From Escherichia coli (lineage in GTDB: Bacteria; Pseudomonadota; Gammaproteobacteria; Enterobacterales; Enterobacteriaceae): DNA of 64,000 bases. The stretch's first letter is position 1; every line of letters starts with the position of its first letter. The position numbers and the translations under genes were made by a program. Below, piece after piece: positions 9,729 through 13,189 of the stretch. The notes beneath the pieces are model-generated. The model was not told the DNA's origin, made no database searches, and saw only the letters and a program-made list of their open reading frames with translations. Where the stretch lies: NCBI RefSeq assembly GCF_024502345.1, contig NZ_JALDNN010000001.1; one strand, written 5' to 3'.

Positions 9729-10919
9729 GTGACCACCCGACAGCATTCGTCGTTTGCTATTGTTTTTATCCTTGGCCTGCTGGCCATGTTGATGCCGCTG
9801 TCGATTGATATGTATCTGCCCGCGCTACCGGTAATTTCAGCGCAGTTTGGCGTACCTGCGGGCAGTACGCAGATGACCCTCAGTACTTATATTCTGGGCT
9901 TTGCGTTGGGGCAGTTAATCTACGGGCCGATGGCAGACAGCTTTGGGCGTAAGCCGGTGGTTCTTGGCGGTACGCTGGTGTTTGCCGCCGCCGCGGTGGC
10001 GTGTGCGTTGGCACAAACCATCGATCAGCTGATTGTGATGCGTTTCTTCCACGGGCTGGCGGCGGCTGCGGCCAGCGTGGTTATCAACGCTTTGATGCGT
10101 GATATCTACCCGAAAGAAGAGTTCTCGCGGATGATGTCGTTTGTCATGCTGGTGACGACCATTGCACCGCTGATGGCACCGATAGTTGGCGGCTGGGTGC
10201 TGGTGTGGCTGAGCTGGCATTACATCTTCTGGATCCTCGCCGTGGCGGCGATTCTGGCTTCGGCAATGATCTTCTTTCTGATCAAAGAAACCTTACCACC
10301 GGAGCGTCGCCAGCCTTTTCACATTCGTACCACTATTGGTAACTTTGCGGCGCTGTTCCGTCATAAGCGTGTCCTGAGTTATATGCTTGCCAGTGGTTTC
10401 AGCTTTGCCGGGATGTTCTCGTTCTTAAGCGCCGGACCGTTTGTCTACATTGAAATTAACCACGTCGCGCCGGAAAACTTTGGTTATTACTTTGCACTAA
10501 ACATTGTTTTCCTGTTCGTGATGACCATTTTTAACAGCCGCTTCGTCCGCCGTATTGGCGCGTTAAATATGTTCCGCTCGGGGTTGTGGATACAGTTTAT
10601 TATGGCGGCGTGGATGGTCATCAGTGCGCTGCTGGGGCTGGGATTCTGGTCGCTGGTGGTTGGCGTTGCGGCGTTTGTGGGCTGCGTGTCGATGGTGTCA
10701 TCCAATGCGATGGCGGTCATTCTTGATGAGTTTCCCCATATGGCGGGAACGGCATCTTCGCTGGCAGGAACCTTCCGTTTTGGCATAGGGGCAATTGTTG
10801 GCGCATTGCTTTCTCTTGCGACCTTTAACTCTGCATGGCCGATGATTTGGTCAATTGCATTCTGCGCAAGCAGCTCCATTCTCTTCTGTCTGTACGCCAG
10901 TCGACCGAAAAAACGGTGA
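9729..10919 (+). CDS. bcr: MFS efflux transporter Bcr (bicyclomycin/sulfonamide resistance)
   Basis: 396-aa multi-TM product recognised as Bcr; GTG start. Confidence 0.9.
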
Positions 10920-11251
10920 TCTATTGCACAACGAGGAAGCTAAAAGGCTTTCTTTGTTGATGCATGTCAACCACAAATCTATCATTCCCCCGATATATGT
11001 TTATTTTATGTAAAATCAATTTATGTAAAAAGTCACATCATTGTAGTTAAAAAGGTTGAGTTAGATCGCAGAAACGGGTACATATAGCCCCGCAAACGTG
11101 ACCACGCCCGCAGATATTACTTAAATCAGAGCCATAGAGGCCACGCAGGCGAGGCATCAATCTTTACGATCTGTATAAAGACGGATTGTTGATGATGTGT
11201 TAAAATTGATGTAAACAAATTGTGAAGTGAATGTGCTTCCGGGGAAAATAA

Positions 11252-11596
11252 GTGACTTCATTACAACTCTCAATCGTCCATCGACTGCCGCAGAACTATC
11301 GCTGGTCTGCTGGTTTCGCAGGTTCGAAGGTTGAACCGATTCCGCAAAATGGACCGTGCGGTGACAACAGCCTGGTGGCGCTTAAATTGCTTAGCCCGGA
11401 TGGTGATAATGCATGGTCGGTGATGTATAAACTAAGCCAGGCGTTAAGCGACATCGAAGTTCCATGTTCGGTGCTGGAGTGTGAAGGTGAGCCGTGCCTG
11501 TTTGTAAATCGCCAGGACGAGTTTGCTGCAACATGCCGATTGAAAAATTTTGGTGTGGCAATTGCCGAACCCTTTTCAAACTACAATCCTTTTTAA
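11252..11596 (+). CDS. yejG: uncharacterised protein YejG
   Basis: 114-aa ORF recognised as YejG. Confidence 0.85.
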
Positions 11597-11599
11597 GCG

Positions 11600-13189
11600 T
11601 CAGCTCAACGCCAGTAGCTGACGCGTATACTCCTGCTGCGGTGTGGCAAACACGCGCGCGCACGGTCCTTGTTCCACTACTTCCCCTTGTCGCAGTACGA
11701 TAACCTGATGACATAACGCGCGGACAACGTGCAAATCGTGGCTGATAAACAAATAGGCCAGTTGATGCTTTTGTTGCAATGATTTCAATAGCGTCAATAT
11801 TTGCGCCTGTACCGTTTTGTCGAGTGATGATGTCGGTTCATCAAGTATGATCAGCGAGGGCTTAAGAATTAATGCCCTGGCAATCGCAATACGTTGTCGC
11901 TGACCACCAGAGAACTCCGCCGGATAACGGTGGCGTGTTTCAGGATCTAATCCCACTTCATGCATCACGGCTATCACTTGTTGTTCGCGTTGTGCGGCAG
12001 AAAGCGTCGGCTGGTGAACCCGTAAGCCTTCCTCAATAATCTGCAAAACGTTGAGTCGTGGGTTGAGCGAGGAGTTTGGATCCTGAAATACCACCTGAAT
12101 GCGATGACGAATAGGTAACAGCTGGCGGCGATTTAAATTTTGCAGTGGCTGACCGTCAAAGATGATGCTGCCCTGAGAATTAATCAGTCGCAGCAGCGCC
12201 AGTCCCGTCGTACTTTTCCCGGAACCGGACTCGCCCACTAAACCCAGTGTTTCACCCGCTCGTAGCGTAAAACTGATGTTTTTCACCACCACATTATGAT
12301 CCACAATGCGCTTCAAAATCCCTTTGCGAATGGGGAAGGCAACCTGAAGCTGTTCAACATCCAGCAACGTTGAGGCAGGTTCTGGCAACGGCACTGGATC
12401 GCCTGACGATTCACTGTTGAGTAGCTTTTGTGTGTAAGGATGAGTGGGTGAGGCAAATAGCGTAGCGGCGTAATTTTGCTCGACACAGCGACCGTTTTGC
12501 ATTACCGCCACGCGGTGGGCCAGTTTTCTGACAATGCTGAGGTTATGAGTAATAAACAGCATGCCCATATTCAGCTCGCCTTGCAGTTCGCGCAACAGCT
12601 GTAAAATCTGCGCCTGGACAGAGACGTCCAGTGCGGTGGTCGGTTCATCGGCAATTAATAATTCCGGTCGCGTTAACAGCGCCATCGCAATCATCACCCG
12701 CTGGCGTTCGCCGCCGGAGAGCTGATGCGGATAATCTGTCAGCCGTTTTGCCGCCTGGCGGATACCAACGCGATCAAGGCAGTTAAGAATTTCGCCACGA
12801 GCCGCTTCCCGACGCATCCCGCGGTGGAGTGAAAGCACTTCATAAAGCTGTTTTTCCAGGGTATGCAATGGATTTAACGACACCATCGGCTCCTGAAAAA
12901 TCATGGCGATCTTATTACCACGTACGCCGCGCAACGTTTGATCGCTGGCATGAAGCAGCGATTCGCCATGAAAACGAATATCGCCGGAGAGATATTCAAC
13001 CGGCGGGGAAGGGAGCAGGCGTAAAATTGACAGCGCGGTAACGCTTTTGCCTGAACCAGACTCACCCACCAGCGCCAGCGTTTCGCCAGCCTCAATCTGT
13101 AGTGAAACATCATTTACTACTGTACGTACGGTTTGCTGATGGCGAAAACCCACCGACAAATCTTCAATCGCTAACAGAGTTTGCGTCAT
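11600..13189 (-). CDS. yejF: ABC transporter ATPase YejF (duplicated ATP-binding domains; peptide/microcin C uptake)
   Basis: Two Walker A motifs (GESGSGKS twice) and two LSGG signature motifs; start taken at MTQTLLAIE (529 aa). Confidence 0.9.

Follow-up and report, generated by a model that had tools for sequence, protein, structure and literature searches.

A repeated 11-mer upstream of Escherichia coli yejG is a conserved regulator site with ArcA half-sites

Layout of the bcr-yejG spacer

The window, by which we mean the whole 64,000-nucleotide stretch of E. coli DNA that was analysed, has the gene order rsuA-bcr-yejG-yejF around the feature studied here. The stop codon of bcr ends at 10919 and yejG begins with GTG at 11252, leaving a spacer of 332 bp (10920-11251) that was matched in 5425 of 5426 complete E. 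coli genomes with flanks annotated as bcr and yejG. Relative to K-12 MG1655, the spacer has two base differences and zero indels. A position x in U00096.2 was converted to the window as 11252 + 2,276,259 − x; the conversion was checked in two ways, against the annotation of yejG in NC_000913.3 (2277893-2278237) and by published site strings, which fell on the exact predicted positions. The features needed for the argument are the following.

10997-11027, plus strand: published ArcA site yejG2, −95 to −65 of the P2 start, sequence ATGTTTATTTTATGTAAAATCAATTTATGTA (Park 2013)
11005-11015, plus strand: repeat copy 1, TTTATGTAAAA, exact match; its ATGTAAA (11008-11014) is direct repeat 2 (DR2) of the upstream ArcA box
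11020-11030, plus strand: repeat copy 2, TTTATGTAAAA, exact match; ATGTAAA at 11023-11029
11056-11092, plus strand: promoter P2 of yejG, with −35 TTGAGT (11056-11061), a 17-bp spacer, −10 TACATA (11079-11084), a GC-rich discriminator and the start at 11092
11186-11229, plus strand: main ArcA operator yejG1, TTGTTGATGATGTGTTAAAATTGATGTAAACAAATTGTGAAGTG, with four direct repeats, TTGTTGA, GTGTTAA, ATGTAAA and TTGTGAA
11198-11212, plus strand: promoter P1 of yejG, with extended −10 TGtTAAAAT (11198-11206) and the start at 11212
11252-11596, plus strand: yejG coding sequence from the ORF list, 114 aa, GTG start; 'YejG family protein' in RefSeq

Both transcription starts are known from primer extension (2,276,299 for P1 and 2,276,419 for P2 in U00096.2; Kiley-lab paper, PMC3798280). 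The P2 start comes from one primer-extension study, and the P2 hexamers were assigned by reading of the sequence. At P1, the published location of the ArcA site ('-26 to 18') agrees with a start at 11212, and TGTGTTAAnAT is conserved in orthologs. A simple promoter and terminator scan missed both mapped yejG promoters and the bcr terminator. Its sole promoter match was TTGATG-17-TATCAT (10957-10985), a pair of hexamers that appears as a constitutive promoter in a listing by Ishihama's group. The spacer had been described as AT-rich, which is true locally at its two ends, where the AT-richness is confined (20-25% GC at the repeats, 33-37% near P1), but not in its middle (52-55% at 11060-11150); GC content is 38% overall.

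Several other elements of the spacer were recorded alongside these. The intrinsic terminator of bcr (10925-10964) consists of a hairpin with a GGAAGC/GCTTTC core plus TTTGTTG (−18.9 kcal/mol, z = −4.5), and its stem shows compensatory changes in orthologs. Right after it, at 10957-10970, lies an FNR-like palindrome, TTGATGCATGTCAA, with 9/10 of the core TTGAT-N4-ATCAA; 41 of 77 orthologous loci carry a perfect core and 22 more one of 9/10, and the palindrome stands at a fixed 41-42 bp from DR1 of the upstream ArcA box, with variable sequence between them. An Rfam scan of 10700-11700 gave nothing meaningful (best E-values 0.39-8.8, far under gathering scores). The P2 core including its 17-bp spacer, TAGATCGCAGAAACGGG (11046-11089), is almost invariant across Enterobacteriaceae, beyond the needs of a sigma-70 promoter. 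Published sigma-32 datasets place an RpoH genomic SELEX peak at 2,276,452 (window 11059) and a weak sigma-32 ChIP-chip signal at 2,276,466 (window 11045), and P2 may serve sigma-70 and sigma-32 alike. P2 was also considered as an rRNA-like stringent promoter, on account of its A-tract and GC-rich discriminator, but this found no support: yejG rises, rather than falls, on entry into stationary phase.

ArcA half-sites in the repeat

In the 64-kb window TTTATGTAAAA occurs exactly twice, both times on the plus strand, where shuffled sequence leads one to expect 0.03 copies (at least two copies were seen in 0 of 100 shuffles). A preliminary description of this DNA had recognised the pair but put it at 10993-11003 and 11011-11021, with a spacing of 18 bp and an overall span (10985-11025) that cuts through the second copy. 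The copies in fact lie at 11005-11015 and 11020-11030, 15 bp from start to start with TCAA alone between them, or −87 to −77 and −72 to −62 relative to the P2 start. The related sequence that it had seen farther downstream is indeed present, as TGATGTAAACAAATTGTGAAGTGAATGTG at 11207-11235, and corresponds to DR3-DR4 of yejG1. A repeat search grouped both copies with a third member of the family, AATTGATGTAAA at 11204-11215, which spans −8 to +4 of P1 and supplies DR3 of yejG1. Each copy of the 11-mer also holds an ATG and then a TAA (11008-11013 and 11023-11028), a start-stop pair without an upstream Shine-Dalgarno sequence; situated upstream of the mapped transcription starts, these pairs are probably meaningless.

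Phosphorylated ArcA (ArcA-P) is the response regulator that turns off aerobic functions under oxygen shortage, and its consensus half-site is WTGTTAA. We scored the window with an 18-bp ArcA-box matrix made from 114 of 128 published boxes, from which yejG1 was left out and in whose list yejG2 is absent. Three of the four best matches in the 64 kb fall inside the 332-bp spacer: ATGTTTATTTTATGTAAA at 10997 (17.9 bits, vs. a training median of 15.9), and two matches of 18.9 bits within yejG1, at 11186 and 11209. Hits of at least 17.9 bits are expected 0.003 times in a spacer of this composition (per-position probability 4.5e-6). Scored as a single half-site, ATGTAAA reaches 8.7 of a possible 10.6 bits at each of 11008, 11023 and 11209, where the training median is 7.3.

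The upstream match is an ArcA box, ATGTTTAttttATGTAAA (10997-11014, −95 to −78 of P2), in which two half-sites stand at the 11-bp spacing of an 18-bp box: DR1, ATGTTTA at 10997-11003, is followed 11 bp on by copy 1, ATGTAAA at 11008-11014, as the second half-site. The stretch 10997-11027 is listed as ArcA site yejG2, with coordinates 2276484-2276514 and scores of 8 bits for DR1, 8.5 for DR2, 1.4 for a weak DR3 at 11018 and 17.6 for the box (Park et al. 2013, PMC3798270). The ArcA ChIP-seq signal there is the weakest in that published list, an enrichment of 1.9 that was seen in just one of the two replicates (PMC3798270). The operator at P1 is the stronger one. yejG1 spans P1 from −26 to +18, its four repeats are spaced 11, 12 and 11 bp apart and score 8.6, 9.7, 9.8 and 5.3 bits, and its ChIP-seq enrichment is 8.2 and 8.5 in the two replicates (PMC3798270). 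A regulator site for yejG had been suggested in the preliminary description with the regulator left unnamed; the regulator is ArcA, as both the published site yejG2 and our matrix score indicate.

In sequence and coordinates, these sites are identical to the published yejG2 and yejG1, and their half-sites fit WTGTTAA in direct orientation, as in other multi-repeat ArcA boxes (PMC3798270). Because the feature belongs with the ArcA direct-repeat operators and its sites have already been published, we regard the repeat as a real, conserved regulator site with ArcA half-sites that is already known. Two properties set it apart. The copies are 15 bp apart, whereas the published architectures use 11 or 22 bp (PMC3798270), and the upstream site lies clear of the core promoter elements, which most repressing ArcA sites overlap.

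The first of these differences concerns copy 2. At a spacing of 15 bp, the two 11-mers together make neither an ArcA box nor a 22-bp pair. The half-site in copy 2 matches ArcA as well as that in copy 1, yet lies outside the 11/22-bp phase, and it belongs to no ArcA box because the partners needed 11 bp away are absent; no 18-bp ArcA box including copy 2 was found, the best overlapping score being 4.6 bits. It is absent from the repeats counted by Park et al. (PMC3798270), and the DR3 of 1.4 bits that they assigned to yejG2 is in a different register.

Conservation and ArcA control of the two promoters

We found yejG with bcr upstream in 80 genomes of other species, where the length of the spacer is largely kept. 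In an alignment of 39 representative spacers, with identities to the window taken from the 36 non-Escherichia sequences, two blocks stand out, 11000-11089 (82-94%) and 11180-11229 (69-84%). Identity is lower between these footprints (26-51% at 11090-11179) and upstream of them (37-69% at 10920-10999). Among the E. coli genomes, 5274 of 5425 share at least 99% identity over the 100-bp block. Conservation in orthologous spacers, by which the preliminary description had proposed to check the repeats, holds for the upstream ArcA box, which scores at least 10 bits in 38 of the 39 Enterobacteriaceae spacers (median 17.1). The box at 11209 does so in 36 of 39.

The two copies fare differently across these species. 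The heptamer of copy 1 is kept in 39/39 orthologs (ATGTGAA in Erwinia), whereas copy 2 reads (A/G)TGTAAA in 31/39 and is lost in the Klebsiella oxytoca group, Intestinirhabdus, Franconibacter, Siccibacter, Serratia and Erwinia. The two 11-mers are perfectly identical only in sequences of the Escherichia, Citrobacter, Salmonella and, in part, Enterobacter type; elsewhere copy 2 is TTTGTGTAAAA. The 15-bp spacing of the copies is retained in 68 of 77 loci.

It is difficult to reconcile these observations with a duplication that arose by chance, or as a low-complexity feature of an AT-rich spacer, and that has no function. Single half-sites of at least 8.7 bits are not rare (0.37 expected on one strand of the spacer), but the exact 11-mer is, at 0.03 expected occurrences per 64 kb; the spacing of the copies has been maintained, and ArcA binding has been published (PMC3798270). 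Because the block is conserved across genera at 82-94%, against 26-51% in its downstream and 37-69% in its upstream flank, a chance origin is excluded for practical purposes.

The position of the upstream box relative to the two promoters is also informative. DR1 lies 79-81 bp from the −10 of P2 in every one of the 77 loci, and exactly 80 bp away in 66 of them, while the distance from the box to the P1 operator drifts over 194-223 bp without helical phasing. From this difference we infer that P2, not P1, is the promoter on which the upstream box acts, and its being locked to P2 argues for function. DNA looping between the two ArcA sites was considered and found no support, since the inter-site distance of 194-223 bp has outliers of 106 and 161-162 bp and shows no helical phasing.

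Published expression data show strong control of yejG by ArcA. In an E. coli arcA mutant, yejG is 11.9-fold up, and anaerobic sigma-70 binding is reduced (PMC3798270); the published sigma-70 ChIP values at yejG are 1461 in aerobic vs. 56 in anaerobic cells. yejG is 2.9-fold up in a Salmonella arcA mutant. As a side observation, a ydgT mutant has lowered expression of yejG and of other ArcA targets, yfiD and pdhR (PMC3686432).

The best explanation of the repeats, to which we give a probability of about 0.7, is that they are ArcA-P half-sites at both promoters, through which yejG is repressed in low oxygen. Copy 1 is DR2 of a canonical two-repeat ArcA box upstream of P2. Under anaerobic conditions, ArcA-P would bind the repeats, sigma-70 RNA polymerase would leave both promoters and yejG would be repressed. 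At P1, the operator physically covers the −10 and the start, and this arrangement of yejG1 has been published (PMC3798270). At P2, repression would need spreading or interference, because the box lies at −95 to −65, off the core elements of the promoter. By one possible route, ArcA-P would spread from the box to weaker half-sites, namely copy 2 (11023), TAGTTAA (11044) and AGGTTGA (11053, over the −35); extended ArcA footprints of this kind have been seen at other promoters (Park et al. 2013, PMC3798270), and on this route copy 2 would act as an auxiliary half-site out of phase. By another, contact with an upstream activator or with the alpha-CTD may be blocked.

The repeats could instead be chiefly AT-rich architectural DNA for Fis or H-NS, or an extended UP-like element of P2, with their resemblance to ArcA half-sites secondary. 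A nucleoid-protein-bound region had also been offered in the preliminary description, and part of this is borne out: an aerobic H-NS ChIP-chip region (2276252-2277051 in U00096.2; window 10460-11259) takes in the 3' end of bcr and all of the spacer, and the FNR-like motif close by has been listed as a predicted site that lacks an FNR ChIP peak and falls within a Fis ChIP-seq region (Myers et al. 2013). The low GC content at the repeats fits such a role, as does the A-tract AAAAAGG that abuts the −35 of P2 in the manner of proximal UP subsites. For IHF, however, the published ChIP-chip data list no peak boundary in 2,276,100-2,276,699, the sequence departs from the consensus and orthologs do not keep its ATCAA core. 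With widths of hundreds of bp, the ChIP-chip and ChIP-seq regions are too broad to point to the repeats in particular. Binding by nucleoid proteins or at UP elements tolerates drift, but at this site the 3-4 bases between copies vary next to TGT cores and an 11-bp spacing that do not change, a pattern that suggests a sequence-specific regulator. We consider a mainly architectural role quite unlikely.

Most of what the repeat reveals was available before. The motif reflects ArcA half-sites that a genome-wide catalogue for E. coli already contains, and its wider impact is small. What the present analysis adds is the exact coordinates, the matrix scores and rarity, the conservation and the fixed distance between box and P2; the observation that the upstream ArcA box, despite its weak ChIP signal, ranks with the most conserved stretches of the spacer in Enterobacteriaceae; and one conserved half-site at an unusual 15-bp spacing, outside the ArcA phase. 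For yejG, a gene of no known function, the tight shut-off by ArcA is a clue to when its product is needed.

Copy 2, CRP and other candidate regulators

The 90-bp block at 11000-11089 is conserved beyond the need of ArcA half-sites, and other factors therefore probably share it. One candidate overlaps copy 2.

11022-11037: CRP-like 16-mer TATGTAAAAAGTCACA, TATGT-aaaaag-TCACA, centred at 11029.5 (−62.5 of P2)

On this alternative, copy 2 would mainly be the left half of a CRP site in a class I position at P2, ArcA would repress by displacing CRP (anti-activation), and the repetition of copies 1 and 2 would be a by-product of two different sites. The element shares with class I CRP promoters (TGTGA-N6-TCACA near −61.5) a perfect TCACA half, an N6 spacing in most species, a centre at −62.5 and in vitro SELEX binding somewhere in the spacer; it differs from them in the degenerate left half of the E. 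coli sequence (TATGT), in a score below that of accepted sites and in a centre 1 bp off the canonical position. The core is 8/10 in E. coli and 9/10 (TGTGT-N6-TCACA) in 5 of 39 aligned orthologs, including E. albertii, S. arizonae, Kosakonia and Leclercia. GTCAC is nearly invariant in orthologs, and the G variant reaches 11.4 bits with a CRP matrix, within the range of accepted sites. Genomic SELEX with CRP gave a weak peak in the yejG-bcr spacer (map 49.0649, ~2,276,452, or window ~11059), and induction of yejG alongside fad genes on entry into stationary phase has been published.

The E. coli site itself, however, scores 7.2 bits, under the 5th percentile of the 103 SELEX and database training sites, at a level where hits of at least 6 bits occur about 1.2 times per kb of the window. 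In three orthologs a 1-bp deletion turns N6 into N5 with GTCAC still kept, and the SELEX authors chose two other sequences in the spacer as CRP boxes. A study of growth rate and carbon source placed yejG under repression by Cra, not Crp, and in vivo CRP occupancy at the CRP-like site was not found in the literature. We therefore hold it rather improbable that copy 2 is chiefly a CRP half-site. One of the two boxes proposed by the SELEX authors, GGTGATCTATTGCACA (10915-10930, over the bcr stop codon), is the best CRP-matrix match in the spacer, at 11.8 bits, and is conserved in Escherichia and Citrobacter only.

Copy 2 may be an auxiliary ArcA half-site or the weak left half of a CRP-like site. 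The off-phase copy 2 and the near-invariant 60 bp that link it to the −35 of P2 (11020-11089) go beyond the published ArcA model, and we tentatively raise two possibilities for them: a non-canonical ArcA architecture, in which a half-site at 15 bp would feed the spread of ArcA-P toward the −35, or a second factor, CRP-like or other, that would activate P2 and be antagonised by ArcA. Taken together these have perhaps one chance in four of being right. Under either, yejG would be a two-promoter, two-mode switch for oxygen and carbon.

Four other known binding motifs were compared with the repeats and rejected. The CpxR box is GTAAA-N5-GTAAA. It resembles the repeats in its direct GTAAA pentamer, but they differ in an 11-bp period, which fits ArcA; GTAAA at 11010 and 11025 are separated by N10, and GTTTA at 10999 and GTAAA at 11010 by N6, rather than N5. 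Against the TyrR box, TGTAAA-N6-TTTACA, the sequence here reads TGTAAA-ATCAAT-TTATGT, with 2/6 in the second arm and direct instead of inverted repeats. With respect to the IHF consensus WATCAANNNNTTR, AATCAATTTATGT has TGT in place of TTR, and its ATCAA varies among orthologs (ATCCA, ATCTA, ATATA). A LexA-like TGT-N8-ACA reading was rejected by inspection (spacing or key bases).

Operator-like sequences of the GalR/GalS and LacI-family types were also noted in and beyond the spacer. In 27 of 79 orthologous spacers, a GalR/GalS-type palindrome, GTGTAAACGTTTAC or GTGTAAGCGTTTTC, occupies the interval from P2 to P1, some 98 bp ahead of the yejG start, in alignment with window ~11150-11170. Its carriers (loci L012-L078) belong to the Citrobacter freundii group, the Klebsiella oxytoca group, Enterobacter and Leclercia, and it has no E. 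coli counterpart. Within the yejG coding sequence, a LacI-family operator-like sequence, GTTGAACCGATTCCGC, occurs at 11330-11345 and appears among predicted GalR sites (PMC5110547). An intragenic ChIP-exo site for Cra has been reported in yejG (PMC5888115), and yejG has been assigned to repression by Cra (PMC8085971).
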